A stretch of DNA of 64,000 nt from assembly GCA_033852135.1 (NCBI GenBank), contig JAWSVB010000022.1, forward strand, positions 101,936 through 165,935, written 5' to 3'. Source of the stretch: Gammaproteobacteria bacterium. Its GTDB lineage: Bacteria; Pseudomonadota; Gammaproteobacteria; QZLD01. Shown here piece after piece: positions 1-59,232 of the stretch (position 1 is the stretch's first letter; every line of letters begins with the position of its first letter). The notes beneath the pieces were generated by a model, which was given only the letters and a program-made list of their open reading frames with translations, ran no database searches and was not told the DNA's origin. Made by a program: the position numbers and the translations under genes.

Positions 1-2496
1 AAAATATTAGAGCCACAAAAAATTGGAGAGAATGGGTATTTTTTTATATTTAAAAGTGATGGGTATTTGTTGCTACACCCAGTGCTTGCAGGACAAAATG
101 GGAGTAAATTAATAAATCCTGTATCAGGTAACAGTATGTTAATTGATATGAAAAATGCAGCAATGTCTAATGAAAGACTATTGAAATATATATGGGATAG
201 GCCAGATGATAAGGGCAACTATCGTTATAAGAAAAAAGCTTTCCTAGCGTATTACCAGCCACTTGATTGGTATGTGGTGACCTCAGTTTACAATGATGAT
301 ATCGATTTATTAACATCAACTTTAGTTACAAGCGCTAAGGTAATTTTCTTTATTTCAATTTTAGTATCATTAATTCTTTCGCTACTTTTAATTAGAAGCA
401 TTACTAAACCCCTTAACGATTTAGTAGGAGCAATATCTGGTACTGACAATACAGGGGTTCCTACCGTTGAAATCCCAGAGGGAAACCTGGAAGAGATTAA
501 AGTTTTAAGTCGCACTATGAACTTAATGATATCAAGGATTAAAGAATATCAAATTAACTTTATAGATAGTGAATTAAAATTTAAGAGTTTGGTTGAATCT
601 GTAACAGATTTAATTTGGGAACTAGATAAAGATGGTAACTATGTATATATAAGCCCAAGAATTTATGATTTATTAGGCTATACACCTGAAGAAGTAATTG
701 GGAATAGCCCTATGATGTTTATGGATTCAGAAGAAACCCAAGCTATTTCTCCATTTTTAGAACAGATATTTGCAGATGGAAAAGGGTTTCAGAATTTAGA
801 AAGCAAATGTTTTCATAAGGATGGGACGCCGCGTACTATTGAAGTATCAGCTGCCCCATTTTTTAATGATAAAGGTGAATTACAGGGTTTAAGGGGGGTT
901 ACCCGCGATATAACAGAAAAAATAAAAGTTGCCAGAGAGCTACATGAAAGTGAGGAAAAGTTTAAGTTGCTTGCAGATCAAATGTTGCTCGGAATTCTAA
1001 TTGTTAAAGATGGGCTGTATAAATATTATAACGATGCGGTACTGGAGATATTTGGTACAACTAAACAACAAATGGACTCATTAGGCCCTTATGATCTTCA
1101 AACCTTAATTCACCCTGATGATAGGGCGTTTGTAATGGACCAGTTAAAGAAAAAGGAAAGAGGGCATAAAGACATAGTAATTAATTACGATTGGCGCCTT
1201 ATGTCTAGTAATGGCAAGACTAAATGGGTTGAGTCCTGGTCTAAAACTATAGATTTTGATGGAGAGACAGCTGATTTTGTACTTTTGTACGATATAACCG
1301 AGAGAAAAGACGCAGAGAATGAAGTTACACATTTAAGAAACTATCTCTCCAATGTGATTAACTCAATGCCATCGATATTAGTTGGAGTTGATGTTGAGGG
1401 TAAGATTACTCAGTGGAATAAAACAGCGGTAGACCGGACTAATTTGTGTGCTGAAAAAGTTATGGGTAAACATTTAAGCCAAGTATTGCCTAACTTAAAA
1501 CCAGTGTTTAAAAAGATAGAGCAGAGTATTAAAGCAAATAAATCAGTGCAGACAAAAATATCATATCAAACCAAAGAAAGTAACAGTGTGGTACAAGAGG
1601 TAACAGTATACCCGCTAGAAGCGGATGGAGTTGAAGGAGCCGTAATTCGTATTGACGATATTTCAGAAAAAGTACGTATGCAGGAGATGATGATACAAAG
1701 TGAAAAGATGCTCTCTATTGCCGGGCTTGCTGCAGGAATGGCTCATGAGATAAATAATCCTTTGGCAGGAATGATGCAAACTGCCAGTGTTATGTCTAAC
1801 CGCCTTATAAAAAAAGTAGATATGCCAGCAAATAATGATGCTGCAGAGCACGCAGGAACTACGGTTGATGCAATAAAGCAGTTTATGGATGAGCGTGATA
1901 TCCCTCGTATGATTAACGCAATAAACGAGTCGGGAAAAAGGGCTGCGATTATTGTTAATAATATGCTTAATTTTGCTCGCAAGGATGATGGTGGAGTAAT
2001 AGCTTCGCAAATAAATGAAATAATCCGTGTTTCGATTGAGCTGGCCGAAACAGATTACAACATGAAAAAACGTTATGATTTTAAGAAGGTATCTATAGAT
2101 ACTGAGTTCGGCCAAAATCTTCCTGATCTTTACTGTGACCAAGCTCAAATCCAGCAAGTGATTTTTAATCTTTTGCGTAATAGCGCTCAAGCAATGCAAG
2201 AAGCACAAATAGAATCACCACAAGTGCGCATTCGAACTAGCTTTAATAGTGACAACAACAAAGTGTTGATTGAACTATTTGATAATGGTCCAGGTATGGC
2301 AGAGGAGGTTCGTAAAAGAGTATTCGAACCTTTCTTTACCACTAAACCTACAGGTATCGGAACAGGGCTAGGTCTAAGCGTATCGTATTACATCATCGTC
2401 GAAGAGCATGGAGGGGAGATGTATTTAGACTCCGCACCAGGTGCTGGGACTAAATTCACAATAGCTTTACCGCTTGATAGAGGGGAAAGTTCATGA
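1..2496 (+). CDS. Sensor histidine kinase, 5'-truncated at window edge (Cache-like periplasmic end, TM, HAMP, 3x PAS, HisKA, HATPase)
   Basis: Frame 1 is open from nt 1 with no stop before the listed ORF at 67 ('KILEPQKIGENGYFFIFKSDGYLLLHP' is Cache-like), so the gene starts upstream of the window. TM segment 'VIFFISILVSLILSLLLI'; H-box 'SEKMLSIAGLAAGMAHEINNPLAGM'; G1/G2 ATPase motifs 'DNGPGM...GIGTGLGLS'. Confidence 0.85.
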   Translation, partial: KILEPQKIGENGYFFIFKSDGYLLLHPVLAGQNGSKLINPVSGNSMLIDMKNAAMSNERLLKYIWDRPDDKGNYRYKKKAFLAYYQPLDWYVVTSVYNDDIDLLTSTLVTSAKVIFFISILVSLILSLLLIRSITKPLNDLVGAISGTDNTGVPTVEIPEGNLEEIKVLSRTMNLMISRIKEYQINFIDSELKFKSLVESVTDLIWELDKDGNYVYISPRIYDLLGYTPEEVIGNSPMMFMDSEETQAISPFLEQIFADGKGFQNLESKCFHKDGTPRTIEVSAAPFFNDKGELQGLRGVTRDITEKIKVARELHESEEKFKLLADQMLLGILIVKDGLYKYYNDAVLEIFGTTKQQMDSLGPYDLQTLIHPDDRAFVMDQLKKKERGHKDIVINYDWRLMSSNGKTKWVESWSKTIDFDGETADFVLLYDITERKDAENEVTHLRNYLSNVINSMPSILVGVDVEGKITQWNKTAVDRTNLCAEKVMGKHLSQVLPNLKPVFKKIEQSIKANKSVQTKISYQTKESNSVVQEVTVYPLEADGVEGAVIRIDDISEKVRMQEMMIQSEKMLSIAGLAAGMAHEINNPLAGMMQTASVMSNRLIKKVDMPANNDAAEHAGTTVDAIKQFMDERDIPRMINAINESGKRAAIIVNNMLNFARKDDGGVIASQINEIIRVSIELAETDYNMKKRYDFKKVSIDTEFGQNLPDLYCDQAQIQQVIFNLLRNSAQAMQEAQIESPQVRIRTSFNSDNNKVLIELFDNGPGMAEEVRKRVFEPFFTTKPTGIGTGLGLSVSYYIIVEEHGGEMYLDSAPGAGTKFTIALPLDRGESS

Positions 2497-2511
2497 TGGG
2501 GCAGGCGCAGT

Positions 2512-2883
2512 ATGAATAATTCAATTTTAATTGTTGATGATGAACTTTTTATTCGGCAAAGTCTGAATGATTTTTTTAAAGATAGTCAATGGATTACATT
2601 CATAGCAAGCAGTGGAGAGGAAGCTTTAGAAATTCTTGAGCAGGAGAGCCCTTCTGCAGCAATTGTAGATATAAGAATGATGGGAATGAATGGTGATGAA
2701 TTTATTCGGCAAGCAAGAGATGTAAAACCGGAAATGTGTTTTGTGATATGTACAGGGTCACCTGAATATAAACCATCGTATGACCTTCTTCAGCTATCAC
2801 AAGTGTCAGAACAAATATATAGAAAACCGATTGATGATATGGAAAATCTGGAAAACCATATATCAAGTTTAATTAGTAATTAA
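2512..2883 (+). CDS. Single-domain response regulator (CheY-like receiver only)
   Basis: 'ILIVDDE' acidic pair, phospho-acceptor Asp in 'AIVDIRMMGMNG', 'CTGS' and 'YRKP' Lys. No output domain. Starts 16 nt after the HK1 stop. Confidence 0.85.
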   Translation: MNNSILIVDDELFIRQSLNDFFKDSQWITFIASSGEEALEILEQESPSAAIVDIRMMGMNGDEFIRQARDVKPEMCFVICTGSPEYKPSYDLLQLSQVSEQIYRKPIDDMENLENHISSLISN

Positions 2884-2910
2884 CATGAACAGTTATTAAG
2901 CCTTTTTATA

Positions 2911-2980
2911 GGTTAGATAGGTTAGATAGGTTAGATAGGTTGGATGGGTTAGATAGGTTGGATGGGTTAGATAGGTTAGA
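2911..2980. repeat. Tandem 9-bp repeat, about 7.8 copies (GGTTAGATA / GGTTGGATG variants)
   Basis: Direct reading gives GGTTAGATA x3, GGTTGGATG, GGTTAGATA, GGTTGGATG, GGTTAGATA, then a partial GGTTAGA. Lies between the receiver stop (2883) and the HK2 start (3003). Confidence 0.95.
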
Positions 2981-3002
2981 AGTTAAGTAGGTAAATTAAA
3001 AC

Positions 3003-5375
3003 ATGATTTTAAGGCGTAAAGTAAATATAAGGAACTCAGTAGCAACCAGGTTGTTAAAGGTTGTGTTCTGTTTTTATATTGCATTTGCTCTTTTAGTCAC
3101 TCTTTCCCACATGTTTATTGAATATAGCTATCAGAAAGGAGATGTAAATAAATCGTTAGTTGAATTCCAGCCAACTATCGAATCAACTCTTGCAATGAAT
3201 TTATGGCATATGGATGACCAATCACTTAAATCAACAATAGATAGCATCATTAAAATCCCTTTAATAGTTGGTATTAAGATAAAAGATGAATCAAAAAATA
3301 TAATTGCAGTTGATGGAGTAGTTTCTGAAGCTGATTTTTCTGGAAAGATTGAACAAGATATTGATTTTCTAGGGTTAAAGAGCAATATAAATGACTTACA
3401 AACTAATTCATATAATCTTGAAGTTTTCCAACATACATTTCCAATTTACTATAGATATAAAGGGCAACAAAGACTATTAGGTGAAGTAACACTCTTTTCT
3501 AACTCATCGGTTATTTTTGATAGAGTAAAAGTTCAGTTCTTACTTTTGGTAATAAATTCAGTACTTAAATCGTTAGCTCTGTGGGTGTTTTTCCTACTTA
3601 TATCAAACTATATATTGCGTCGCCCATTAGAATCAATTGCGGAGGCGGCTGAAAATATCAGTGTGGAAAACCTTAGTGATTTTAAAATTAAAATAAAGTC
3701 TGCAGGAAACGATGAATTAAGCGTTATAGAAAATTCATTTAATGAAATGATAAAAAAACTCTCAGATTCTATAAATAAACAGAAGGGGGCAGAACAAAAT
3801 TTAAGAGAAAATGAGATTAAATTTAGAACGCTTGTAGAGAATGTTCCCGGAGTAACTTATCGTTGTATTAATGATGAACCTTGGACAATGATATACCTAA
3901 GTGATGAGATAGAAAACTTATCAGGCTACCAACGTTCAGATTTTATAAATAATAATAAACGTACATTTGCATCAATAATTCATATTGAGGACACCACCTT
4001 CATTTCAAAAGCAGCAGAAAAAGCTATTAAGAATAGAACAACTTATTCATTTGAATATCGCATAGTTCGTGCAAATGGTGAAATTCGCTGGGTATATGAA
4101 AAGGGACAGCCAATATTTGATGAGAACGGTGAATTACAGTTTTTTGATGGTGTTATTATCGATATTACCGAAAGAAAACAAGCTGAAAGTGAGATAAGAA
4201 AACTACGAAAGTACCTTACAAACATTATTGACTCAATGCCTTCATCCTTAGTTGGTGTAGATGAAAGTCTAAAAATAACACAATGGAATAAAACCATTGA
4301 AGATACGACAGGGATTGCCGCAGTAGATGCATATGGAAAATCAATAGAAGATATTTTACCGCAAATGCAATCTGAGTTAGGGAAAATATCATGTAGCCTG
4401 CATACCCGAACAGTACAACGTAATCAGATAAAAAGAGGGGTAGATGAGACCGGCATATGTTATGAAGACGTCACCATTTATCCCTTAATTGCAAACGGGG
4501 TTAAGGGTGCAGTTATTCGCATAGATGACATTACCGAAAAAGTAAGGATGGAAGAGATACTGATTCAGAGTGAAAAAATGCTTTCAGTTGGAGGTTTAGC
4601 CGCAGGGATGGCTCATGAGATAAACAATCCATTAGCAGGCATGGTGCAAACAGTAAATGTGATGTCAAACAGGTTGATTGAAAAATCAGATATGCCAGCC
4701 AATATAGAAGCAGCTAAAGAAGCTGGAACAACCATAGAAGCAATCAATAAATTTATGCATATTCGTGATATTCCGCGGATGATTGCTACTATAAATGAAT
4801 CTGGCAAAAGAGCATCAGCCATAGTTAACAATATGCTCAGTTTTGCTCGCAAAGGGAGCAGTGAAAAAGCAACAGTGAACTACATAGAGTTAGTTGATAA
4901 TACGATTGATTTGGCAGTGACAGATTACAACCTTAAGAGTAACTATGACTTTAAACAAGTTGACGTTATTAGAGAATATAAAGATAAAACTGTATTTATT
5001 GAATGTGAACCATCACAGATTCAGCAAGTTATATTAAATCTAATTCGAAATGCTGCTCAAGCAATGCAGGATGCCAAAATACCATCTCCAAAATTGACCG
5101 TTCGTATCAGCCACGATAAAGACACAGCAATGGTTAAAACTGAGATAGAAGATAATGGACCAGGTATAGATAAAGAGACATTAAAACGGATCTTTGAACC
5201 TTTTTATACGACAAAACCAGTAGGTGTGGGAACAGGACTAGGGTTGAGCGTTTCATATTTCATCATAGCTGATAATCATAATGGAGAGATGCATGTTGAG
5301 TCTGTATCAGGCCAAGGTACGAGATTTACAATAAGTTTGCCTGTTAACAGCATAAAACAACAAATAGGTGTATAA
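3003..5375 (+). CDS. Sensor histidine kinase (2 TM periplasmic sensor, HAMP, PAS x2, HisKA, HATPase); paralog of HK1
   Basis: TM 'VVFCFYIAFALLVTLSHMFI' and 'LALWVFFLLISNYIL'. HAMP-like 'RRPLESIAEAAENIS'. H-box 'SEKMLSVGGLAAGMAHEINNPLAGMVQT'. 'DNGPGI...GVGTGLGLS'. Confidence 0.88.
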   Translation: MILRRKVNIRNSVATRLLKVVFCFYIAFALLVTLSHMFIEYSYQKGDVNKSLVEFQPTIESTLAMNLWHMDDQSLKSTIDSIIKIPLIVGIKIKDESKNIIAVDGVVSEADFSGKIEQDIDFLGLKSNINDLQTNSYNLEVFQHTFPIYYRYKGQQRLLGEVTLFSNSSVIFDRVKVQFLLLVINSVLKSLALWVFFLLISNYILRRPLESIAEAAENISVENLSDFKIKIKSAGNDELSVIENSFNEMIKKLSDSINKQKGAEQNLRENEIKFRTLVENVPGVTYRCINDEPWTMIYLSDEIENLSGYQRSDFINNNKRTFASIIHIEDTTFISKAAEKAIKNRTTYSFEYRIVRANGEIRWVYEKGQPIFDENGELQFFDGVIIDITERKQAESEIRKLRKYLTNIIDSMPSSLVGVDESLKITQWNKTIEDTTGIAAVDAYGKSIEDILPQMQSELGKISCSLHTRTVQRNQIKRGVDETGICYEDVTIYPLIANGVKGAVIRIDDITEKVRMEEILIQSEKMLSVGGLAAGMAHEINNPLAGMVQTVNVMSNRLIEKSDMPANIEAAKEAGTTIEAINKFMHIRDIPRMIATINESGKRASAIVNNMLSFARKGSSEKATVNYIELVDNTIDLAVTDYNLKSNYDFKQVDVIREYKDKTVFIECEPSQIQQVILNLIRNAAQAMQDAKIPSPKLTVRISHDKDTAMVKTEIEDNGPGIDKETLKRIFEPFYTTKPVGVGTGLGLSVSYFIIADNHNGEMHVESVSGQGTRFTISLPVNSIKQQIGV

Positions 5376-5408
5376 CATAAATAATGAGCATATATCTTTA
5401 AATATTCT

Positions 5409-5426
5409 ACAGTTATAACTGTAGGC
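5409..5426. promoter_or_regulatory. Perfect 18-bp palindrome CTACAGTTATAACTGTAG (candidate operator, or weak terminator without a T-run)
   Basis: Seen directly, 34 nt after the HK2 stop and about 135 nt upstream of the MEDS-like gene. Confidence 0.5.
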
Positions 5427-5563
5427 CTATTTGAGTTTTTAGTGTTGATGAATGGACAGGCACTAATGAAAGATTAACCGTTTAACTGTTGGTTAGTCGC
5501 TAGAGATACTGTGTATTTAATAGCAGCTGGTATGTGAACAGTTGCTATGTGGGAGGAGAGATT

Positions 5564-6184
5564 ATGAATGATAATCATCAAAAAATCTCACTGGGTTTTG
5601 TGAAAGAAAAAGTAGATGTAGGAACTCATCTATGTCTTGTATTTACCGATAAAAAGGAAAGAGTTGATTCTTTGTTAAAATTTATTTTAGCAGGGATGGC
5701 AGATAATGAGCGCACAGCATGTTTTTCTGAAGTTATAACTGAAGCAGAGATAACAGAGTTTTTTAAACTAAATAATATCTCCTACGATGAACGTAAATCC
5801 AAGCAAGCAATAACCTTTGGTCGTACTAGTGATGTCTATTTTCAAGACAATACTTTTGACCCAGAAAGAATGCTTGGAATCTTAGAACAATTCTATACAG
5901 ATGCGATAGAAATGGGGTTTAGCGCCTCAAGAGTAATTGGAGAGATGTCTCCGAAGATACAAGATGTCACTGGCGGTGAGAGATTGCTGGAATACGAATC
6001 AAGAGTTACTAAATTACTTGAAAAGAGCCCGATAACAGCTGTTTGCCAATATGATGCAAATCAATTTGATGGAGCGACGATTATGGATGTATTGAAAGTG
6101 CACCCAAAGATGATTGTTAATGGCGTAGTTGTTGAAAATCCATTTTTTATAAAACCCGATGAATTTCTTGAAAATATCAAGTAA
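5564..6184 (+). CDS. Small cytoplasmic sensory-domain protein, possibly MEDS family (DcmR-like)
   Basis: ATG at 5564 follows a strong RBS GGGAGGAGAG (the listed ORF starts at 5534 with no RBS). About 206 aa, no TM. The motifs 'HLCLVF' and 'AVCQYD' recall MEDS domains as I remember them. The protein sits directly upstream of the soluble kinase HK3. The family assignment is from memory and not verified. Confidence 0.4.
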   Translation: MNDNHQKISLGFVKEKVDVGTHLCLVFTDKKERVDSLLKFILAGMADNERTACFSEVITEAEITEFFKLNNISYDERKSKQAITFGRTSDVYFQDNTFDPERMLGILEQFYTDAIEMGFSASRVIGEMSPKIQDVTGGERLLEYESRVTKLLEKSPITAVCQYDANQFDGATIMDVLKVHPKMIVNGVVVENPFFIKPDEFLENIK

Positions 6185-6200
6185 AAGGCATAGTTAGCAT

Positions 6201-7898
6201 ATGAGCTTTGAGGATGGTCTTTCAGCTAAAGTAATTGGGCAGATTGCAATGATGCAAGGTGTTGTAGCACAGCTGCCAGATGAGGTTTCTGTACTTGGTT
6301 TTGTTGCTAAAGGGTTATCCGATATTCCAGGTGTGAAAAAGGTAGATTATGTCTTATTCAATGATGAAGAAACATCAGTATTAGAATATGAAACAGAAGA
6401 ACTAAGGCACATATTTCCAATTGAATATAAGCAATCAAAATACTCATCATTAATATTTCACCTATCTGATAGATCTAAATTTGACCTGTATGCCCCTTAT
6501 ATCGGTAATTTTACCAATGTACTAGCAGTACTGTTTGAGGAGAGGCGTCAGCGCAAATCTAATGAGGCATTGTTAGAAAATCTTGAAGAGTTGGTGGATG
6601 AAAGAACAAAAGAGTTAAAACAAGAGATTGCTGAACGTAAAAATGCAGAGGCTGAGTTAGAGAGAACAAAAGACTACATATCAAATGTAATCGACTCTAT
6701 GCCATCTGCTCTAATATCAGTAAATGAAAACCTTGAAGTAACGCAATGGAATTTAAAAGCGGAGGAGATTACAGGGGTGCCAGCCCCAGATGCTTTTGGG
6801 ATGAAGCTGGATGATGTTTTTCCGCGCATGGGAAAAGAGCTGGAATTAATATCAAACAGTATACAAAACAAAGAGATAAAATTTGAGCAGAAAACAGCAT
6901 ACGAAGCAGAATCAGGTGTAGGTTATGAAGATATAACAATTTACCCTTTAGTAGCGATTGGGATTCAAGGTGCTGTTTTACGTATAGATGATGTCACCAG
7001 TAAAGTGCGTATGGAAGAGATGCTGGTACAAAGTGAGAAGATGCTCTCAATCGGAGGGCTTGCCGCAGGAATGGCGCATGAAATTAACAATCCATTAGCT
7101 GGGATGATGCAAACAGCAAATGTAATGCAAAATCGTTTAGTCGATAATGTTGATATTCCAGCAAATAGAAGAGCGGCAGAGGAGATTGGTGTGGATCTTG
7201 AAGCGATTGTTGGCTTTATGTCGGCTAGAGGAATTCCGCGCATGATACACGCGATAAAAGAGTCTGGTGTAAGGGTAGCTTCAATAGTCAATAATATGCT
7301 GCATTTTGCACAACAATCAGATGATGAAATTAATACAAGTAAAATTGCAGATATAATCGAGAACACTATTGGTTTAGTTTCTACAGATTACAATCTAAAG
7401 AAACAGTACGATTTTAAAAAAATTAATATTATTCGGGAGTTTCAAGAAGATCTACCTGAAATTGAGTGCCACTCATCCAAAATTCAACAGGCCATGTTGA
7501 ATCTATTTAGCAATAGTGCACATGCACTGCAACAAGCTAAAATTGAAAATCCAAAAATAATAATAAGATTAGCGATAGATGAGAAGCAAGATGATAAAGA
7601 TGCAATGGTACGGGTTGAGATTGAAGATAATGGCCCAGGTATTTCCAGTAAGTTAATAGGTAGATTATTCGAACCATTTTATACAACAAAACCTACAGGT
7701 GAGGGAAAAGGGTTAGGTTTAAGTGTTGCATATTTCATAATTACTGAAACTCATAAAGGAAAGATGTGGGTAGAGTCTAATGAGGGGGTAGGCACTAAAT
7801 TCATAATATGTTTGCCAGTAAAGCAAAATGGTAGCGATATAAGTATCGATAGAAATGTAGATAAAAATTCTATAAATTCAATGGATAACAAAGGTTAA
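6201..7898 (+). CDS. Soluble (no TM) histidine kinase: N-terminal domain, coiled coil, PAS, HisKA, HATPase; paralog of HK1/2/4
   Basis: Coiled coil 'LEELVDERTKELKQEIAERKNAEAELERTKDY'. H-box 'SEKMLSIGGLAAGMAHEINNPLAGMMQT'. 'DNGPGIS...GEGKGLGLS'. Confidence 0.88.
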   Translation: MSFEDGLSAKVIGQIAMMQGVVAQLPDEVSVLGFVAKGLSDIPGVKKVDYVLFNDEETSVLEYETEELRHIFPIEYKQSKYSSLIFHLSDRSKFDLYAPYIGNFTNVLAVLFEERRQRKSNEALLENLEELVDERTKELKQEIAERKNAEAELERTKDYISNVIDSMPSALISVNENLEVTQWNLKAEEITGVPAPDAFGMKLDDVFPRMGKELELISNSIQNKEIKFEQKTAYEAESGVGYEDITIYPLVAIGIQGAVLRIDDVTSKVRMEEMLVQSEKMLSIGGLAAGMAHEINNPLAGMMQTANVMQNRLVDNVDIPANRRAAEEIGVDLEAIVGFMSARGIPRMIHAIKESGVRVASIVNNMLHFAQQSDDEINTSKIADIIENTIGLVSTDYNLKKQYDFKKINIIREFQEDLPEIECHSSKIQQAMLNLFSNSAHALQQAKIENPKIIIRLAIDEKQDDKDAMVRVEIEDNGPGISSKLIGRLFEPFYTTKPTGEGKGLGLSVAYFIITETHKGKMWVESNEGVGTKFIICLPVKQNGSDISIDRNVDKNSINSMDNKG

Positions 7899-7903
7899 GT
7901 TAT

Positions 7904-9058
7904 ATGATTAAACTATTTAAAATAATAGCTGTTTTATCATTGTTAGCATTAATCGTAATACTGAATATGCAATCTGCATCTACTGTAAAGATTGGATTAG
8001 TTGCAGATTTAAGTAGTAGAAAAGCCAACCTTGGTGATTCTGTAAGAAATGGGCTGATTCTCGCGATAAATGAGATAAATCAACAAGGCGGTATAAATGG
8101 TCACAAGGTTGAATTATTAGTTCGAGATGGTAAATCTAACGAAGCTATTACCCAGCAACAAGCAACTAATTTAGTTGATAACTGTGTAAATCTAATAGTT
8201 GGACCTGTGCACAGTGCAATGGCAAATTCAGTAATAGAAGCGACTAAAGAAGCAGGTATATTGGTTATAAGTCCAACAGTTTCAACTGATAACCTCTCCG
8301 AAATTGATGATAACTTTTTCCGCATAAATACCAAATCATCCATTCAAGGTAATGACCTTGCAAGAGCATCAAAACTTAGGGGCGATAAGAAAGTATTATT
8401 GGTAGTGGACCAAGATAATAGTGAGTATACCGGGTCAGTAGCTCATGGTTTTAGAGAGAGAGCAAAACTACTGGATTTAGAAGTCATCGGTGAAATAGCT
8501 TTTACTAAGGAGCACGATACTACTAAATTGGTAGATAAAATCATCCAATACAAGGCTGATGCATTAGTCTTTATAACTAATGGCAAAGATGCAGCAAAAA
8601 TTATCCAGCTATATAACAAAGTTAGCAAACTACCAAACTTATATGGTGATATGTGGGCGAAGTGGAGCAATGTTAAAGAGTTTGGAGGTAAAGCTGTAAA
8701 TGGGATGGTTTTAGTTGGCATTAATAAGAATAAACAGAGCCAAGATAAAGAGGTGCAATTTGCCTCATCCTATAAACAGCTTTTTGGTTCAGAGTATACG
8801 ATACCAGCGGTTTATGCGTATGAGGCTGTACAATTATATGCTTTAGGTGCACAAAATGCCTCTAGCTTGGATAGCGATAAAATTAAACAATATATTTTGA
8901 AAATAGAGCAAATAGATGGAGTGGTGGATAACTATAAACTTGATATGTATGGTGATGCAATTCGAGAGTTTTCATATTTCCAAATTAAAGATAATAGATA
9001 TGAAAAGATAAATTTACCCAAAGAGTTACCTATAAAAATAGATAGTGTTAAAGAGTAG
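7904..9058 (+). CDS. Periplasmic binding protein, LivK/Leu-Ile-Val-binding family (Peripla_BP_6-like), signal peptide
   Basis: Signal peptide 'MIKLFKIIAVLSLLALIVILN'. 'VKIGLVADLSSRK...GINGHKVELLVRDGKSN' is typical of type I PBPs. No ABC permease or ATPase genes nearby. Confidence 0.75.
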   Translation: MIKLFKIIAVLSLLALIVILNMQSASTVKIGLVADLSSRKANLGDSVRNGLILAINEINQQGGINGHKVELLVRDGKSNEAITQQQATNLVDNCVNLIVGPVHSAMANSVIEATKEAGILVISPTVSTDNLSEIDDNFFRINTKSSIQGNDLARASKLRGDKKVLLVVDQDNSEYTGSVAHGFRERAKLLDLEVIGEIAFTKEHDTTKLVDKIIQYKADALVFITNGKDAAKIIQLYNKVSKLPNLYGDMWAKWSNVKEFGGKAVNGMVLVGINKNKQSQDKEVQFASSYKQLFGSEYTIPAVYAYEAVQLYALGAQNASSLDSDKIKQYILKIEQIDGVVDNYKLDMYGDAIREFSYFQIKDNRYEKINLPKELPIKIDSVKE

Positions 9059-10222
9059 ATGGTTAAAAATATGAATAATTATAAAACAGGAACAAAAAGA
9101 TTAATCAGAGCTGGAGCAATAATTGTTTTGCTAGCATTGGTTACTTGGCTATTACTATCCCTACTAATTTTAAAAGAGCCGGTAAAAATAGGTTTTTTAG
9201 CAGATTTAAGTACCAGAAAATCGCAGCTAGGTGTTGTGGCAAGAAACGGTGTGATTATGGCCGTAGATGAATTAAATGACAGAGGTGGAATAAACGGTAG
9301 AAAAGTTGAGCTTATTATTAGAGATATAAAATCAAGTAAAGATGAGGCAAAGCTTCAAACGTTAAAATTAATTGAAGATGGGGTAGATGTGATAATCGGA
9401 GGGTTTGTTAGCTCAATGGCCGCTCCTGTTCTTGAAGCTACAAAGAATAGTAATATCTTGCTAATAAGTCCTACAGTTGCAGCTGATAGTTTGTCAGGAA
9501 TTGATGATAATTTTATTCGGATTACCCCACAAGCATCAAAACATGGTAGTTCGCTTGCTGAGGCAGCTGGGTATATGGGAATTAAAAAAGTTACTTTGAT
9601 TCGCGATATCAAAAATGAAGAGTACTCAGGGGCTGTAGTTGATGGGTTTAAGAAAAAATGTGAAGAACAATCTATTCAAGTTATTGGTGATCTAGAGTTT
9701 GAAACCAAGCAAGACTTCCCTCAACTTGTTGAGCAATTGTCTAAGCTGCAGTCAGATGCTTTGGTATTTATCACCAGTGGAATCGATGCCGGTGCGATTA
9801 TTCAGCAATATGCTAGAAATAATAATGTTCCACATCTATTTGGCAGCATGTGGACAAAAGTTACAAAAGTAAATGAGTATGGTGGAAAAGCAGTAAATGG
9901 AATGTTTCTGGTAGATGTTTTTGCGAATAAAAATCCAGAAGTTAAAGAAGTAGAGTTTAATAAATCTTTCAAAGAGCGTTTTGGAATGGGATCAAATATG
10001 CCATCAAGGTATACATATGAATCTGTAAAGCTATTTGCTCAAGCTGCTGAGAAAGCAAATAGTGTAAAAACTGAAAAAGTAAAAACTGAAATTATTAATA
10101 TGAACCCTGTTGAGGGGATAACAGATAACTATCAGATTGATAAATATGGTGATGTTATTCGTGAACTATCCCTTTATCAGATTAAAAATCACCAGTACGA
10201 GTTGACTAATAAAACGAACTAA
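9059..10222 (+). CDS. Second LivK-type periplasmic binding protein (tandem paralog), N-terminal membrane anchor or signal
   Basis: 'VKIGFLADLSTRKSQLGVVARNGVIMAVDELNDRGGINGRKVELIIRDIKSS' is parallel to the upstream PBP. Hydrophobic N-terminus 'AIIVLLALVTWLLLSLLIL'. Confidence 0.75.
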   Translation: MVKNMNNYKTGTKRLIRAGAIIVLLALVTWLLLSLLILKEPVKIGFLADLSTRKSQLGVVARNGVIMAVDELNDRGGINGRKVELIIRDIKSSKDEAKLQTLKLIEDGVDVIIGGFVSSMAAPVLEATKNSNILLISPTVAADSLSGIDDNFIRITPQASKHGSSLAEAAGYMGIKKVTLIRDIKNEEYSGAVVDGFKKKCEEQSIQVIGDLEFETKQDFPQLVEQLSKLQSDALVFITSGIDAGAIIQQYARNNNVPHLFGSMWTKVTKVNEYGGKAVNGMFLVDVFANKNPEVKEVEFNKSFKERFGMGSNMPSRYTYESVKLFAQAAEKANSVKTEKVKTEIINMNPVEGITDNYQIDKYGDVIRELSLYQIKNHQYELTNKTN

Positions 10223-10342
10223 TACAAATAGCTAATTAATAAAAAGTGCAATAAATAGGATATATGTAAATGCAGAAAAAAATCAGTAAAGAAATGAACC
10301 AACAATACAAAAAGGTTGCGTTTAAATAGCAGGTTTTATGTA

Positions 10343-12601
10343 ATGGTTAATTTCTTTCATAACATAAGCATTCAAAGGTTTTTCAAGATTTATCTCTTGA
10401 TTGCTGTGTTATTACCGTTATTGGTTCTTGGCTTGGTAGGATTGACAATATCATCAAGCTTATTAAGGCATGAGATATTAAACGCAGATCATAGGCAGGT
10501 ACACCTTGCTGAATATGCTATCGAGCAGCACCTCCAAAGACCACTTGAGGATCTTCAGGTTATATCAAGCCTAATTCATAATATTTCAAAATCACAGCCA
10601 TCAAGAATCCAGAGAATTATCGAAAAAACTCAAGATGCGCATAGATATTTTGCAGCTATTCAAGTTGTTGATATTGATGGTCGAGTAATTGCTATATCCC
10701 CATTAAATAAAGATTTGATGGGTATTGATGTATCAGGACACAGATACTTCAATAAAATTAAAAGTTTAAATACTCCGTATTGGGGGGCATCATTTATATC
10801 GGAGCAGTTAGAGTTACCACTCGCATCACTAAGTATAAAAACAGATTATGGCTTTATTATCACAGGTTTTCTCAGATTAGATGATATTAGTGAAATCGGT
10901 AAAGGTAGGAGACAAGAAGAAACTAGTAATAATGATATTGATTCACGATTGTTGTTTATCACAGACCAGAATGGGGTATTTATTGCACACCCAGACAAAC
11001 AAAAAGTTATGATTCGTGAATATGACCAACAATATGCAAAAAGTATTAAGCAGTGGAATAGTGATATTTTAGTTAGTGAGGCTGAATATAATGAGCGTGA
11101 ATTCTTAGTAAATACGGTTATTATGCCAGAGACAAAATGGAAAATATCACTATATACTCCACTTGAAAATATCACTTCTCCAATTATAAAAACGGCAGTT
11201 ATATTACTGCTTTTAACTCTAGCAGTTACCGTATTAGCAATTATTGGCGGAGCAAAACTCAGTAGTAAAATATCTGGCTCTTTCAGTGAGTTGCTTAAGT
11301 CAGTAGATGCTATCGGCAAAGGGAAGTATGAAGTACCAATATCTCAAAGTAATTATAGAGAGTTTAACCAGCTTGCTGATTCATTTGAACAGATGGCACA
11401 AGAGGTAAAAGCAAGGGAGAAAGACCTCAAGGAAGCAGAGAGCTATATCTCCAATATTATTAATTCCATGCCATCAATATTGGTAAGTGTGAACAGAGAT
11501 CTAATAATTACGCAGTGGAACATGACTGCAAAAGATAAAACAGGGGTTGAGGCAGAAGATGCAAAAGGGAAAAATCTAGTGGAGCTTTTGCCTAATTTGC
11601 AGTCAGAAATCAGTAAAATAGAGAGCAGCATAGAAAGTCGGCAAGTTAAATATAGCAGGAAAAAGCCACTTTATTCTGAGAGCAATGTAAGCTACGAGGA
11701 TATAACAATTTTTCCACTAATAGCTAACGGAGTACAAGGAGCTGTTATTCGTGTTGATGATGTTACGGATAAAGTTCGTCTTGAAGAGATGCTGGTACAA
11801 AATGAGAAAATGTTATCCATTGGTGGGTTGGCAGCTGGTATGGCGCATGAAATCAATAATCCGCTAGCAGGGATGATGCAAACAGCAGATGTTATTCAGA
11901 ATCGTTTAGTAAATAAAATTGATTTGCCAGCAAATAAAAAAGCAGCAGAAGAAGCAGGTATTACTATTGAAGGGGTTTCTAAATTTATACATGCCAGAGA
12001 TATTCCTCGTATGATTGAAACAATAAAAGAGTCTGGTAAACGTGCGGCTACTATCGTTAATAATATGCTCACATTTGCACGTAAGGCAGACCACAGTAAA
12101 TCAAAGGTAAATGTAGAGCGTTTATTAGAAGACACATTAGATCTAGCAATAACCGATTACAATTTAGAAAAAGAGCATGATTTTAAACAGATAAAAATCA
12201 TAAAAGAGTTTGAATCTAGCTTGCCATTATTGCTATGTGAAGAAACTAAAATTCAGCAGGTGATTTTAAATTTACTGCTCAACAGTGCCCAAGCAATATT
12301 TGGCAGCAGTATAAAAGCACCTGTAATTCATATCCGTACAAGTCTGTCTAAAGATAGCAAAATTATTAATATCGAGATTGAAGATAATGGCCCGGGGATG
12401 GATAACGAAACAAGTAAAAGAATATTTGAACCGTTTTTTACAACAAAAGATGTTGGTCAAGGGACAGGTTTAGGTTTAAGTGTTTCATATTTTATTGTTA
12501 CAGAGAATCATGGTGGTGAGATGAGTGTTACATCAAAGACAGGGGAAGGCACTAAGTTTTTAATATCCCTGCCAGTAGAAGGAAACAAAAATGAATACTA
12601 G
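10343..12601 (+). CDS. Sensor histidine kinase with ~250-aa Cache-like periplasmic domain, TM, HAMP, PAS, HisKA, HATPase (paralog HK4)
   Basis: ATG at 10343 (the listed ORF uses an in-frame TTG at 10316). TM1 'IYLLIAVLLPLLVLGLVGLTI', TM2 'AVILLLLTLAVTVLAIIGG'. H-box 'NEKMLSIGGLAAGMAHEINNPLAGMMQT'. 'DNGPGM...GQGTGLGLS'. Confidence 0.85.
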   Translation: MVNFFHNISIQRFFKIYLLIAVLLPLLVLGLVGLTISSSLLRHEILNADHRQVHLAEYAIEQHLQRPLEDLQVISSLIHNISKSQPSRIQRIIEKTQDAHRYFAAIQVVDIDGRVIAISPLNKDLMGIDVSGHRYFNKIKSLNTPYWGASFISEQLELPLASLSIKTDYGFIITGFLRLDDISEIGKGRRQEETSNNDIDSRLLFITDQNGVFIAHPDKQKVMIREYDQQYAKSIKQWNSDILVSEAEYNEREFLVNTVIMPETKWKISLYTPLENITSPIIKTAVILLLLTLAVTVLAIIGGAKLSSKISGSFSELLKSVDAIGKGKYEVPISQSNYREFNQLADSFEQMAQEVKAREKDLKEAESYISNIINSMPSILVSVNRDLIITQWNMTAKDKTGVEAEDAKGKNLVELLPNLQSEISKIESSIESRQVKYSRKKPLYSESNVSYEDITIFPLIANGVQGAVIRVDDVTDKVRLEEMLVQNEKMLSIGGLAAGMAHEINNPLAGMMQTADVIQNRLVNKIDLPANKKAAEEAGITIEGVSKFIHARDIPRMIETIKESGKRAATIVNNMLTFARKADHSKSKVNVERLLEDTLDLAITDYNLEKEHDFKQIKIIKEFESSLPLLLCEETKIQQVILNLLLNSAQAIFGSSIKAPVIHIRTSLSKDSKIINIEIEDNGPGMDNETSKRIFEPFFTTKDVGQGTGLGLSVSYFIVTENHGGEMSVTSKTGEGTKFLISLPVEGNKNEY

Positions 12602-12968
12602 TAATAAAAGCGTTTTGATTTTAGATGATGAACCGTTTGTAAGGGATAGTCTTGTAGATTATTTTGAAGATTGCCTTTGGACCGTATTTTGTTCTGGGCA
12701 GGAGGATGAGGCGCTAGATATTATAAAAAACTATAAAATAGATTGTGCCATAGTGGATATTCGAATGGCAGGTATTGGTGGGGACCAATTTATTCGTGAA
12801 GCGAATAAACTGCCCAATAAAATTGGATTTGTAGTTTGTACCGGTTCTCCTGAGTATGAAATTCCAGCTGATTTAGCCGCATTAGAAAATGTTTCAAATA
12901 CTATTTTTAGTAAACCTGTGACAGAGCTAAATAAATTAGAGCAAGAATTACTGAAGTTAGCAGGATAA
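12591..12968 (+). CDS. Single-domain response regulator (receiver only), translationally coupled to HK4
   Basis: ATG overlaps the HK4 stop (ATGAATACTAG). 'VLILDDEP', 'AIVDIRMAGIGG', 'CTGS', 'FSKP'. Paralog of the receiver at 2512. Confidence 0.85.
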   Translation: MNTSNKSVLILDDEPFVRDSLVDYFEDCLWTVFCSGQEDEALDIIKNYKIDCAIVDIRMAGIGGDQFIREANKLPNKIGFVVCTGSPEYEIPADLAALENVSNTIFSKPVTELNKLEQELLKLAG

Positions 12969-13044: not shown

Positions 13045-14352
13045 ATGAGTGATACTCAAATTACAGTGCTAGCAATTGATGATGATGAATACATCAGGCA
13101 AAGTTATATCGATTGTTTGGAAGACTATGAATACAAAGTATTTATAGCTGAAAATGGCAGAGTTGGTTTAGAGCTTTTTGAACAGCACATTGATGAAATT
13201 GATATCGTAATTGTTGACCTAAGAATGCCAGAGGTTGATGGCTTTCAAGTAGTTGCACATGTGAAAAAAAGTAAGCCAGAGCTACCAATAATTGTAGTTT
13301 CCGGTAATGGAGTAATAAGTGATGCAGTTGAGGCTCTTCATCAAGGAGCGTGGGATTACTTGCTAAAACCGATAGAAGATTTTTCTGTATTGATTCACTC
13401 TGTAAATAGCTGCTTGGATAAGGCGCGTCTTATTAATGAGAATGCAGAGTATCAACTCCATCTGGAAAGTATGGTTGCAGATAGAACTAATGAATTATTT
13501 GAAGCAAATATTGAGCTGAAAAGGCATAAAAGTCACCTGCAAGAGCTGGTTGAAGAGAGAACATCAAAATTAAATGAATCATTAGAAAATCTAAATAATA
13601 CAAAAGATTATTTAATCCAATCTGAAAAAATGGCAGCCCTAGGTGGTTTGGTTGCTGGTGTTGCGCATGAGATTAATACTCCAGTTGGGATTGGTGTAAC
13701 GGCTGCCTCACACCTCGAAGGTGAGACCAGAAAGTTTACTAAAGCCTATGAAAACGGCGAACTAACCAGAAAGGCGTTAGATAGCTATGTGAAAATAGTA
13801 AATGAAAGTTGTGGAATGATTCTGTCCAATATGAATCGTGCTGCAGACTTAATCCATAGCTTCAAGCAAGTTGCAGTTGACCAATCTAGCCAAGAAAATC
13901 GTGAGTTTAATGTTAAAAAGTATTTGCATGAGATCTTTGCAAGCCTGAATCCAAAGTTTAAGAATACCAGTTTAACTATCAATGTAGAGTGCGCAGATGA
14001 CCTGACCATTAACTCCTACCCTGGGACTATGTCTCAGATTATCACCAACCTTGCCTTAAACTCCCTTATCCATGGCTTTGAAGATAAAGAAAATGGAACT
14101 ATAGATTTAAAAGTTGTGAAAGAAAATGGAAATATTAAGATAAATTATTCAGATACCGGCCACGGAATATCAGAAGAAAATTTAACTAAAATATTCGACC
14201 CATTTTTCACAACTAAGAGGGGTTATGGGGGGAGTGGACTTGGCTTACATATAGTTTTCAATTTGGTCACCCAAACCCTTGGTGGAAGTATTGAATGCAA
14301 TTCGAAAGAGGGTGAAGGGGCTGAGTTCATTATTGAATTTCCATACTCTTAG
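13045..14352 (+). CDS. Hybrid response regulator-histidine kinase (N-terminal receiver, coiled coil, HisKA of a different subfamily, HATPase)
   Basis: Receiver 'VLAIDDDEYIRQ...IVIVDLRMPEVDG...VVSGNG...LLKP'. H-box 'SEKMAALGGLVAGVAHEINTPVGIG'. 'DTGHGI...GGSGLGLHIV'. Confidence 0.85.
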   Translation: MSDTQITVLAIDDDEYIRQSYIDCLEDYEYKVFIAENGRVGLELFEQHIDEIDIVIVDLRMPEVDGFQVVAHVKKSKPELPIIVVSGNGVISDAVEALHQGAWDYLLKPIEDFSVLIHSVNSCLDKARLINENAEYQLHLESMVADRTNELFEANIELKRHKSHLQELVEERTSKLNESLENLNNTKDYLIQSEKMAALGGLVAGVAHEINTPVGIGVTAASHLEGETRKFTKAYENGELTRKALDSYVKIVNESCGMILSNMNRAADLIHSFKQVAVDQSSQENREFNVKKYLHEIFASLNPKFKNTSLTINVECADDLTINSYPGTMSQIITNLALNSLIHGFEDKENGTIDLKVVKENGNIKINYSDTGHGISEENLTKIFDPFFTTKRGYGGSGLGLHIVFNLVTQTLGGSIECNSKEGEGAEFIIEFPYS

Positions 14353-24111: not shown

Positions 24112-25278
24112 CTAAGCTTTTGCAACCTGTTCACGCTTATTTTTGTTCAGCATGACGGCATTAAAATGCTCTACCCATTTATCAGAAAACTGAGTGCCTG
24201 AACATGCATTTATCTCAGATATACCTCTGATATATGTACGCTTGTGATCTCGGTCAGATCTATTATTTGTCATGGAGTAAAAAGCATCAACAATAGCCAT
24301 TATCTTGGCTCCATCAGAGATGCTAGCGCTTTTTAGTCCCTCTGGATAACCTTTCCCATCTGGTCTTTCATGGTGTTGTTGCACTATGGTGCCAGTATCA
24401 TTCCAATTTATTAACCTTTTAGTGATAGATGCACCCTGCGATGTATGGCGGTTGATTAGATTAACTTCATCTTTGCTTAGTTTGCCCTTTTTAAACATTA
24501 CATGGTTGGGTATAAATGCCATGCCGATATCATGCAAGCAAACAGCAGCTGTTAGTTTACTTGGGTCTAGTGGATTTCCGGCAGATTCATTTATGCTAAG
24601 TGCAAGCTCGATTAACTGCTGCGTTCTACCTTCCCAAGCGGGATTCTTTTTATCAATTTTGGCTGCAAGCATCCGGAAAAATTTTAAATCATCCCGCATC
24701 CCTTGGGTTAACGAAACATCATTTGCTTCAATAGATTCTTGGTTTTTATTCCTCTTAGGTTTGATATCTTTTTCAGGTTCTGGTGCAGTAGTTGTTTCAG
24801 CTGGTACAGGGTTAAATCTACCAGTGATAAGGGTGATAAGTTTTTCAGCTTCATCAGTATATTCAGCATCTTTTGCTTTTGAAATCTTAGTTAATAGAGT
24901 TTGAATCTCTTCACGTTGAAATTCAGCAATAGACTTGTGATTAATTACTGCATAGATAACCTCTTTTAAACGATCAAGAGAGATTAGTACTACATCGCAT
25001 AAAGTATCATTGAATTGGATTTTTTTGGTTTTGATCGAGTAAATTACATCTTCAATTGCTTGGCTTAAAGATACAATTGGGTCAAGTTCACATACAGTAG
25101 CATTGGATTTGACTGAATGAATAGCTCGGAAACAGTCATCAATAAGAAACTGGTCATCAGGTTGACTAATTAGAGTTGATAAGTTTGTTTCGATAGTTGC
25201 ATAACTTTCAGAAAAGTTATCAAGCAGGTCCTGAATTAATTCTTCTTCAACATTGTGGATATAGATTTCTTCAGACAT
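24112..25278 (-). CDS. HPt-like domain fused to HD-GYP c-di-GMP phosphodiesterase
   Basis: C-terminus: 'HDIGMAFIP...HHERPDGKGYPEGL' (HD and GYP motifs). N-terminus: 'CFRAIHSVKSNATVCELDPIVSLSQAIEDV' resembles the CheA-P1/HPt consensus 'FRAAHSIKGGAGTFG'. Pro/Thr/Glu-rich linker between them. Confidence 0.7.
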   Translation of the reverse strand: MSEEIYIHNVEEELIQDLLDNFSESYATIETNLSTLISQPDDQFLIDDCFRAIHSVKSNATVCELDPIVSLSQAIEDVIYSIKTKKIQFNDTLCDVVLISLDRLKEVIYAVINHKSIAEFQREEIQTLLTKISKAKDAEYTDEAEKLITLITGRFNPVPAETTTAPEPEKDIKPKRNKNQESIEANDVSLTQGMRDDLKFFRMLAAKIDKKNPAWEGRTQQLIELALSINESAGNPLDPSKLTAAVCLHDIGMAFIPNHVMFKKGKLSKDEVNLINRHTSQGASITKRLINWNDTGTIVQQHHERPDGKGYPEGLKSASISDGAKIMAIVDAFYSMTNNRSDRDHKRTYIRGISEINACSGTQFSDKWVEHFNAVMLNKNKREQVAKA

Positions 25279-25427
25279 TTTAATTCACACTAAATTAACA
25301 ACACACATTAATGAATATAGCTAATTTTTGAAGTAAATCTGTATAGAGGTTCAAAAATGGATAGGATAATAGTTCGAATGTTTCACAATAATAACAAAAG
25401 ATGAAAAATTACCCCTAGAGGTAGGAA

Positions 25428-26294
25428 CTATGGAGATATCTTCTCTTTAGATATTATCCCTTCAAGCCACTGTATTGCTTCATTAACAGTTTGAACCCTG
25501 GTACGAGGGTCAGGTCTGAGCATTTGGGCAATTAGTTGTGATAGTTGAGACCCTACAAGCGGGGATATGAACTGGTCCGGGAGAGAGCAAACATTTTTTG
25601 CATTGAGGATTTGTTCAGCAGTTGAAGAGCCGGTATTCCACTTTTTTCCTGTAACAAGCTCATAAAAAATAACTCCAACTTGAAATATATCGCTTTGTTC
25701 CAGCCATTGTTCTCCTTGGGCTTGCTCAGGACTCAGATACTCAGTAGAACATTGGGCTGTAGTATGCATTACTTTATGTTTTTTAAAGAAAGCAGAAGCA
25801 AAATCCACAAGGTAAACATGTCCTTTTTTACCGAGAATAATATTTTCTGGAGTGATATTGCCATGAATTACAGGCTCTTTGCATAGGTGGAGGTATTTGA
25901 GTGCTCCGAGTATTTGCGATACAACGCCAACTGCAAAGCGAGGGTTCTTATAAATCTGTGCTGGCTTTTCAGCGCACAGCGCTTTTAGCGACATACCTTT
26001 AACGTAATTATATGCAATATAATGGATGTCATTGACTTTGCCGTGCTCAGTATATTTAGGAAACTGTTTGCCTTTGAGAAGGTTTAAGATTTTTCCTTCA
26101 AGTTGGAATTGCTTAATTGCTTTTTCATTTGTAGAAAGTTTTGAATCTAAAAATTTAATATAAAGTGGTGCCTTATCCTTTTTTTCAGCCACGCCAATAG
26201 CGGCTCTATAAAAAGAATCTTTTTTAAGTGGTCTGAGAAAATAGTTTCCTGTACGAAAAGGAAACGGAGTTGCACTACCTTGTTGTGTGTTCAT
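25428..26294 (-). CDS. Protein-kinase-like protein (Ser/Thr kinase fold) with substituted catalytic loop; probable pseudokinase
   Basis: Kinase landmarks are present: 'YIKFLD' (VAIK Lys), 'EGKIL' (alpha-C Glu), 'YLSPE' (APE). The HRD catalytic loop reads 'HGNITPEN' (no Asp) and DFG reads 'DFA'. Confidence 0.6.
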   Translation of the reverse strand: MNTQQGSATPFPFRTGNYFLRPLKKDSFYRAAIGVAEKKDKAPLYIKFLDSKLSTNEKAIKQFQLEGKILNLLKGKQFPKYTEHGKVNDIHYIAYNYVKGMSLKALCAEKPAQIYKNPRFAVGVVSQILGALKYLHLCKEPVIHGNITPENIILGKKGHVYLVDFASAFFKKHKVMHTTAQCSTEYLSPEQAQGEQWLEQSDIFQVGVIFYELVTGKKWNTGSSTAEQILNAKNVCSLPDQFISPLVGSQLSQLIAQMLRPDPRTRVQTVNEAIQWLEGIISKEKISP

Positions 26295-31240: not shown

Positions 31241-31459
31241 ATCGGTCCAGGTTGAAGGCAGTAATAGGCGCCAATCATCTCATTTTTAGGAATTAAATCC
31301 AATTAAGCCCTATAAATAGTTCTTAATAACTAAAAAAACAGGACTCAGGTAACATTACAGCAAAAGATTTACAGTAATTAATGGTAACTAAACTATTATT
31401 TTAGTAATTAGTATAAATGTAATTTATCTATTGATGGTTGGTAGTTGTCGGAATGTTTA

Positions 31460-46508: not shown

Positions 46509-46585
46509 TATTAGCTAAGTCTAGGTGCTTGGTAATTAGGTGCTAGTTATTGGGTGCGAATGTAAACAGCTGAACATTAAATAGA

Positions 46586-58996: not shown

Positions 58997-59072
<76 letters not shown>

Positions 59073-59227: not shown

Positions 59228-59232
59228 AATTC

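Follow-up and report, generated by a model that had tools for sequence, protein, structure and literature searches.

We analysed a 64,000-nucleotide (nt) stretch of a gammaproteobacterial genome (contig JAWSVB010000022.1 of assembly GCA_033852135.1; hereafter the window), whose G+C content is 36.6%, and in it a gene for a stand-alone MEDS protein and the histidine kinase (HK) gene directly behind it, HK3. Together they occupy positions 5564-7898 of the window. The first 14 kb of the window form a same-strand signalling array in the order HK1, a REC-only gene, HK2, a 188-nt gap, the MEDS gene, HK3, two Peripla_BP_6 genes, HK4, another REC-only gene and a REC-kinase hybrid.

The MEDS gene (5564-6184, forward strand) starts with ATG and encodes a soluble protein of 206 residues. 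The original prediction, made from the sequence alone, had described a cytoplasmic protein of about this length carrying the motifs HLCLVF and AVCQYD: both motifs are present, at residues 22-27 and 159-164, and no hydrophobic segment was found in the protein. Its assignment to the MEDS family also stands, with PF14417 matching over the whole model (positions 1-161 of 161, residues 21-181 of the protein) at an E value of 6.4e-38 and 130.5 bits, against a gathering cut-off of 29.8. MEDS is the only Pfam domain of the protein, and the Pfam scan gave no match to a helix-turn-helix (HTH) family. The NCBIfam RsbA family NF041045 scores 42.5 bits, below its cut-off of 210, with model positions 3-166 of 303 aligned to residues 22-199. 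A Shine-Dalgarno sequence, GGGAGGAG, can be read at 5551-5558 on the forward strand and is conserved in L001, the nearest relative in the species collection, a gammaproteobacterial metagenome-assembled genome (MAG) with the same gene order. A longer reading from a GTG at 5534 was set aside in favour of the ATG at 5564 because the homologs all begin with M-x5-6-(V/I)SLGF. An identical MEDS protein with the same flanking genes is encoded in assembly GCA_041156845.1 (contig JBFPEJ010000161.1).

The last base of the MEDS stop codon is 6184 and the HK3 start codon lies at 6201, which gives the 16-nt gap that had been reported. HK3 (6201-7898, forward strand) is a soluble histidine kinase of 565 residues in which no transmembrane segment was found. 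Pfam places a PAS domain at residues 160-268 (6678-7004, forward strand), and HisKA (residues 286-371, E 3.7e-08) and HATPase_c (residues 425-541, E 9.2e-23) together at 7056-7823 of the same strand; the histidine of the H-box, MAHEINNPL, is present in the translation. The first 118 residues (6201-6554, forward strand) make up a domain that is uncatalogued, here called the N-domain, and a long signalling helix seen in the AlphaFold2 (AF2) model (residues 98-159; 6492-6677, forward strand) joins it to the PAS domain. This N-domain is our candidate docking or receiver domain for MEDS.

Ten N-domain sequences were compared with Pfam and matched no family even at an E value of 10, apart from unrelated noise. 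When HK3 residues 1-121 were run through a word-indexed protein search nothing came back, which was a miss of the index: phmmer, run exhaustively over 1.84 billion cluster representatives, recovered 309 proteins at E ≤1e-3 and 135 at E ≤1e-10. In nearly all of the 150 matches listed, the N-domain lies at the extreme N-terminus, at residues ~1-120. Its carriers are proteins of 500-1500 residues or short N-terminal fragments, and the outputs attached to it are kinases and hybrid kinases, with one member each carrying GGDEF and HTH. In the partner proteins a conserved helix motif, LE..V.ERT.EL..EI.ERK, follows the domain.

The order of the two genes is kept far beyond this genome. A homology search with the MEDS protein gave 795 matches, the best 120 of which are all MEDS-only proteins of 199-222 residues from many phyla, 55-88% identical to the query if the window's own entry is left aside. 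It had been stated that MEDS is normally fused to kinases; the uniformly stand-alone form of these 120 homologs speaks against that, as does EtnR2, a stand-alone MEDS protein that had already been studied (PMC11197473). The subfamily retains 55-65% identity across Planctomycetota, Desulfobacterales, Anaerolineae, Spirochaetes, Kiritimatiellia-type bacteria and Gammaproteobacteria.

We collected 28 loci, 17 of them through MEDS and 11 independently through the kinase N-terminus, and in every one a gene for an N-domain protein comes directly after the MEDS gene on the same strand. The forward loci include ones from a gammaproteobacterial MAG, Planctomycetota, Pontiellaceae, Polyangiaceae, Methylotenera, Ignavibacteria, Nodosilinea, Thiospirochaeta, Candidatus Sedimenticola and an Anaerolineae-type contig. 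In them the next same-strand gene always encodes a soluble PAS-HisKA-HATPase protein with or without REC, or, once (L005), a GAF-PAS-GGDEF-EAL protein. For the reverse direction, a metagenome collection was searched with an N-domain alignment of five closer sequences, and the loci recovered were then scanned with a MEDS hidden Markov model (HMM): 11 of 11 had MEDS directly upstream on the same strand. Every partner protein examined begins with the same N-domain of ~120 residues, and in every locus sampled this domain was seen only directly downstream of a MEDS gene. The distance from the MEDS stop to the partner start ranges from -10 to +17 nt over the 11 junctions measured. Flanking genes are unrelated between loci; in most of them the pair stands alone, with a long intergenic region upstream and a convergent gene or a gap downstream.

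The two partners also diverge together. From L001 to L006, identity to the window falls jointly, at 86, 60, 58, 54, 40 and 38% for MEDS and about 87, 42, 45, 33, 27 and 20% for the N-domain, and MEDS is the more conserved of the two (60 versus 42%, 54 versus 31-36%, 40 versus 26-28%). Because the gene order holds in 28 of 28 loci from many phyla and in both search directions, with tight junctions and flanks that are not conserved, the proteins encoded by the MEDS gene and HK3 very probably work together, as had been proposed when the two were described as a split MEDS and kinase pair.

Two irregular members turned up in these searches. One cluster representative of 830 residues (P0243) carries MEDS, the N-domain, PAS, the kinase and REC in one chain; as a natural fusion it was downgraded, its junction NPFFVPSRPCLPKDGGLTACAEARALGQI lacking the usual PEEYL C-terminal helix and looking frameshifted. 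In Thiospirochaeta perfilievii (CP035807; locus L012, 6630-8212) the MEDS-linked kinase is split into a 160-residue N-domain open reading frame (ORF) and a 371-residue PAS-kinase ORF, whereas a metagenome contig with an identical MEDS protein and the same neighbourhood (L011) has an intact kinase of 527 residues. The split is a frameshift, a pseudogene or a sequencing error.

The AF2 model of MEDS, built from a 40-sequence alignment, has a mean predicted local distance difference test (pLDDT) score of 93.9. Its top 50 Foldseek matches in the PDB are solely members of the KaiC family (FlaH, KaiC CI/CII, Sso2452 and PH0186), with a probability of 1.0, template-modelling (TM) scores of 0.53-0.65 and identities of 8-15%. 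A comparison of the MEDS profile with the sequences of solved structures gave only noise (E 0.37 or worse). No Walker A motif (GxxxxGK[ST]) is found after strand 1 of the protein: HLCLVF is followed by TDKKER instead, and the consensus of the 40 homologs at the P-loop site is F(T/S)xEEER, with no GK[ST]. By this model, MEDS of the window is predicted to be a catalytically dead KaiC/FlaH/RecA-like domain without a P-loop. In Galperin et al. (2018) MEDS appears under the label ‘iKaiC’, for an inactivated KaiC-like ATPase domain (PMC5847659), and the combination of a KaiC-like fold with a missing Walker A motif agrees with that label.

Residues invariant in the subfamily include H22, C24, E49, R123, G126-E127-M128, E143-Y144-E145, C161-Q162-Y163, H180-P181 and N192-P193. 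Most of these positions are also present in EtnR2, which is 27% identical to the window protein over a full-length alignment (E 5e-32). Placed on the secondary structure, GEM, EYE and CQY fall at strand C-termini or helix starts, and the face they make up would correspond to the nucleotide-binding face of active KaiC relatives.

The N-domain was modelled with a pLDDT of 93.1 and consists of two helices, three strands and a short helix, followed by the unbroken helix 98-159. Its closest folds in Foldseek are the GAF domains of KdpD (4y2f/4qpr), Nlh1 (4g3k), PA5279 (3e98) and CodY, all at E 0.05-0.2 and with a top TM score of 0.52-0.54; the model has only three strands, and GAF sequence profiles do not match the domain. 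It models as a truncated GAF-like domain plus a signalling helix and not as a member of the GAF family. HK3 had been described as a kinase whose missing input is supplied by MEDS, and this view is overstated, since the kinase has its own PAS domain in addition to the dedicated GAF-like domain at its N-terminus.

HK3 is one of a family of four paralogs within positions 67-12601. HK1 is a Cache-PAS-PAS kinase (1089 residues in the matching contig; its start falls outside the ORF called here), HK2 a CHASE5-HAMP-PAS-PAS kinase and HK4 a dCache-HAMP-PAS kinase. Residues ~137-545 of HK3 are 51-55% identical to the PAS-kinase parts of the other three, and the similarity begins at about residue 137-142; on these alignments we regard HK1-HK4 as true paralogs that share a transmitter and differ in the input module at the N-terminus. 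HK1, HK2 and HK4 each have transmembrane segments and Cache or CHASE5 sensors, and a cytoplasmic input module occurs among the four only in HK3, which was correctly singled out as the paralog that lacks a membrane or periplasmic sensor. It had further been called the only soluble kinase. This is accurate for the four close paralogs but not for the array, where the REC-kinase hybrid (13045-14352), only 27% identical to HK3, has no transmembrane segment either. The arrangement suggests a network that receives its other inputs from periplasmic Cache/CHASE sensors and into which one of the four paralogous kinases, HK3, carries a cytoplasmic signal. The four kinases may converge on the two REC-only proteins, encoded at 2512-2883 and 12591-12968.

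Taking these observations together, we favour, with moderate confidence and from the genomic pattern, the reading that the two genes, MEDS and HK3, constitute a conserved signalling cassette in which MEDS is an input or regulatory subunit acting on the kinase N-domain in response to a probably general cytoplasmic cue. The two proteins would be made together and in stoichiometric amounts from one transcript, with translational coupling. We infer that MEDS, as a separate subunit, binds the N-terminal domain of HK3; a probably general and cytoplasmic cue sensed by MEDS would then shift the long signalling helix and, through the PAS domain, alter how the DHp-CA core is balanced between autokinase and phosphatase activity. 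In this genome the cassette would be joined to the same PAS-kinase transmitter that HK1, HK2 and HK4 use, and HK3 would probably feed its cytoplasmic signal into the same phosphorelay as those three.

Several points weigh against this cassette reading. Near-duplicates are present among the 28 loci (L008-10, L011/12, L013/14 and L020/22/28), and both searches were seeded from proteins of the window, which biases them towards close relatives. Tight linkage would fit a MEDS protein that is an inhibitor, a scaffold or a target of the kinase equally well. The single fusion of MEDS and the N-domain that was found, P0243, is weak evidence of the Rosetta-stone kind. The likeness of the N-domain to GAF is weak and confined to the fold, and hhalign detects no resemblance between the N-domain and EtnR1, the partner of EtnR2 (probability 0.35%). 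Finally, on plasmid p1 of Paraburkholderia acidisoli (L030, 3456-5742), a distant stand-alone MEDS gene (~30% identity) directly precedes a soluble hybrid kinase whose unannotated N-terminus of ~165 residues gives no match to the N-domain HMM, so the docking surface is not universal. The arrangement of MEDS followed by a soluble kinase may then be broader than the subfamily found in the window.

We considered whether MEDS might instead be a negative regulator, a scaffold or a target of the kinase, comparable to Sda, KipI and FixT or to KaiC with SasA, while the PAS and GAF-like domains of HK3 do the sensing. KaiC-family proteins act as hubs and scaffolds, KaiC itself partners the kinase SasA, and the KaiC-like fold of MEDS would suit such a role. 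The same may be said of the RsbA family, in which MEDS is fused to an RsbW-type anti-sigma kinase and to which the window protein has its weak NF041045 match, of the PAS domain that HK3 carries for itself, and of the higher conservation of MEDS relative to its partner domain, as expected from several interaction constraints. However, the invariant H22, C24, E127, E143-Y144-E145, C161-Q162-Y163 and H180 suggest a site for a ligand or cofactor beyond a protein interface, and most of the invariant residues are shared even by EtnR2, which in the one tested system was required for activation and not for inhibition (PMC11197473). We regard a non-sensing role as rather unlikely.

A bolder version of the cassette reading deserves about as much caution: MEDS and the GAF-like N-domain could be an undescribed and very widespread KaiC-derived input cassette of bacteria, in which a dead KaiC-like subunit docks on the N-domain of a kinase or GGDEF-EAL protein and reports a universal intracellular state. 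The cue could then be redox, electrophile or metal status, read through H22, C24, C161 and H180. We think it unlikely that the generalisation holds in this full form; if true, such a cassette would be to bacteria what the proposed KaiC signalling hubs are to archaea, and would likewise parallel KaiC-SasA.

MEDS had also been proposed to sense small hydrocarbons or C1 compounds and so to provide HK3 with its input. The family name and the first published prediction for the domain, in the form in which PMC11507031 cites it, point that way, as does DcmR, which according to the citing passage of the same source governs the expression of dichloromethane dehalogenase. EtnR2 and EtnR1 respond to epoxyethane, and both genes are needed (PMC11197473). 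Yet EtnR2 is only 27% identical to the window protein, and the searchable literature shows no ligand for any MEDS domain. The Pfam scans, which covered 1-27.5 kb and 31.4-51.1 kb of the window, turned up no genes for hydrocarbon or C1 catabolism, methylotrophy, dehalogenases, monooxygenases or coenzyme M metabolism, and the gene lists of related loci contain none either; the flanks are unrelated housekeeping or signalling genes. Nor is HK3 without inputs, given its PAS domain and N-domain. The 55-65% identity of the subfamily across ecologically diverse phyla suits a universal cue better than a niche substrate, and on this ground we consider a cytoplasmic cue of a general kind, which the conserved His, Cys and acidic residues may read, the more plausible; a hydrocarbon or C1 sensor appears improbable.

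That the adjacency reflects mere co-expression or co-inheritance of independent signalling proteins that never touch is the least credible account: a kinase neighbour would be unsurprising within the window alone, where the cluster is packed with signalling genes, but the linkage holds in all 28 loci, which span phyla and unrelated contexts and were reached from both search directions, follows one particular N-terminal domain and not kinases as such (a GGDEF-EAL output is included), and comes with junctions that overlap or are near zero.

The intergenic region upstream of the MEDS gene (5376-5563, 188 nt) contains an 18-bp perfect palindrome, CTACAGTTATAACTGTAG, which had been offered as an operator of the MEDS-HK3 sub-operon. 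The palindrome is real and perfect, although it lies at 5407-5424 and not at 5409-5426 as given, 32 nt downstream of the HK2 stop and 139 nt ahead of the MEDS ATG. At this base composition a 64-kb window should by chance hold 0.5 perfect palindromes with arms of at least 9 nt, and one or more turn up in 40% of first-order Markov simulations. The palindrome is part of an extended RNA hairpin followed by a T-rich tail, TTTGAGTTTTT (5397-5435, forward strand; -11.8 kcal/mol, z-score -2.2), which a terminator consensus scan did not call because its A+T-rich stem has fewer than three G-C pairs.

Comparison with L001, whose MEDS ortholog is 86% identical, was informative. There a 2-nt deletion and substitutions break the dyad while the flanks are well conserved, and a conserved element, TATAGTTAT, pairs with the upstream ATAACTATA over a 7-nt loop with 9-bp arms. 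This hairpin likewise lies 32 nt after the HK2 stop and has a z-score of -3.3. A hairpin that keeps its place while its arms change fits selection on structure and not a dyad operator. A weak terminator or a 3' stabiliser hairpin of the upstream HK1-REC-HK2 operon is accordingly an explanation that we would put close to even, though tentatively. Because the stem is A+T-rich and no terminator was called, chance stays a serious option, and we hold it to be quite possible that the palindrome is nothing more.

As for a dyad-symmetric operator, a perfect 9+9 palindrome in the 188-nt region upstream of MEDS is what one would look for, and a related site, CTGAAGTTATAACTGAAG, with 15 of 18 bases identical and 3 mismatches, lies 320 nt further downstream at 5727-5744, where 0.03 such sites are expected. 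That second site was rejected as chance: it falls within the MEDS ORF in the codons for SEVITEA, which are not conserved, the peptide being SENITEN in the 86%-identical ortholog. Palindromes of this kind are not statistically unusual here, the conserved left arm pairs upstream in L001 and so inverts the half-site arrangement, the position is that of a terminator, the Pfam scan found no DNA-binding regulator encoded in the cluster, and none of nine other loci (0/9) has a comparable inverted repeat upstream of MEDS. We judge the operator quite unlikely, and the palindrome would lie outside the mechanism proposed for MEDS and HK3.

Scans for other signals near the leader were negative. A sigma-70 promoter scan of 5200-6400 returned no hit, no convincing sigma-54 -24/-12 element was seen by eye in the MEDS leader, and the 5' leader (5300-5650), compared with Rfam, showed nothing close to the thresholds, hence no known riboswitch or leader RNA. 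The longest palindrome of the window is another one, the 22-bp perfect ATTTTCCACACGTGTGGAAAAT at 50384-50405, in the intergenic region between a class II tRNA synthetase gene of the Asn/Asp/Lys type (48468-49868) and a Sel1-repeat gene (50572-51099).

Behind HK3, at gaps of 5 and 0 nt, follow two tandem Peripla_BP_6 genes (7904-10222, forward strand; LivJ/UrtA-like, with N-terminal membrane anchors), which precede HK4 and in this lineage probably share the transcript of MEDS and HK3. They are found in L001 and L008; in the other phyla for which we looked at the genes behind the MEDS-kinase pair, they are missing there. As no ABC transporter genes are adjacent, the two binding proteins may serve signalling rather than transport. 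The window as a whole is unusually rich in signal transduction genes: further ones lie at 24112-26294 (reverse strand), 31445-33292 (forward strand) and 42975-48253, and encode Hpt-HD, Ser/Thr protein kinase, REC-GGDEF-EAL, HAMP-PAS-PAS hybrid kinase and GAF-GGDEF proteins. A tRNA cluster, Gly(GCC)-Cys(GCA)-Leu(TAA), lies at 58997-59320 on the forward strand.

MEDS has been a predicted sensor domain for 20 years, and the searchable literature demonstrates neither a ligand nor a mechanism for it. That literature, outside which two key bioinformatic papers fall, also holds no description of a cassette of MEDS and an N-domain kinase. The pair described here offers a clean system for tests: it is highly conserved, its proteins are soluble and simple, and the candidate docking domain has no name in the domain databases. 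If MEDS binds the N-domain and gates the kinase, this would explain hundreds of proteins annotated as ‘MEDS domain-containing protein’ together with the neighbouring ‘PAS domain S-box’ kinases, and KaiC-derived signalling would be extended from archaea and cyanobacteria to many bacterial phyla. In kind the finding is no surprise, as MEDS proteins that stand alone, and a regulator made up of MEDS and a partner, were known before.

Among related systems, KaiC CI/CII, FlaH/ArlH, Sso2452 and PH0186 share the RecA-like fold with MEDS at ~10-14% identity. The window protein differs in being a single domain without Walker A, and neither ATPase activity nor autophosphorylation is expected of it. In KaiC-SasA a KaiC-like protein is partnered with a histidine kinase through the N-terminal domain of the kinase, but that domain of SasA is KaiB/thioredoxin-like and not GAF-like. 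Actinobacterial RsbA anti-sigma factors share MEDS and add a C-terminal RsbW-like kinase domain, and DcmR of Methylobacterium DM4 shares MEDS and has an HTH; the window protein has neither addition. The kinases of methanogens (M. acetivorans MA2082 and MA3962) and haloarchaea likewise couple MEDS to a soluble GHKL kinase, but do so within one polypeptide, of 760 residues in one haloarchaeon, whereas in the window MEDS is a separate protein and the kinase has an N-terminal GAF-like domain; for the MEDS domain of these archaeal kinases, the searchable literature demonstrates no function.

Stand-alone MEDS proteins whose partner is encoded by a gene of its own are already an established arrangement: on p1 of Streptomyces angustmyceticus a stand-alone MEDS gene follows a gene for an HTH protein, and in Mycolicibacterium chubuense NBB4 EtnR2, a stand-alone MEDS protein, and EtnR1, reported as a GAF-containing PucR-type activator, are both required for the response to epoxyethane (PMC11197473). 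EtnR2/EtnR1 is the closest studied precedent for the window pair. Like the window protein, EtnR2 has ~200 residues, stands alone and carries the C-terminal extension HPK..G.V.ENP.Y..EYL, and in the plasmid record etnR2 precedes etnR1 by 10 nt on the same strand, which is the order seen in the window. The two systems part in their partners and surroundings: EtnR1 is a PucR/CdaR-type activator (GGDEF_2 and HTH_30) encoded in an alkene-catabolic gene cluster, to which nothing in the examined context of the window compares, whereas the partner of the window MEDS protein is a histidine kinase set among its paralogs.

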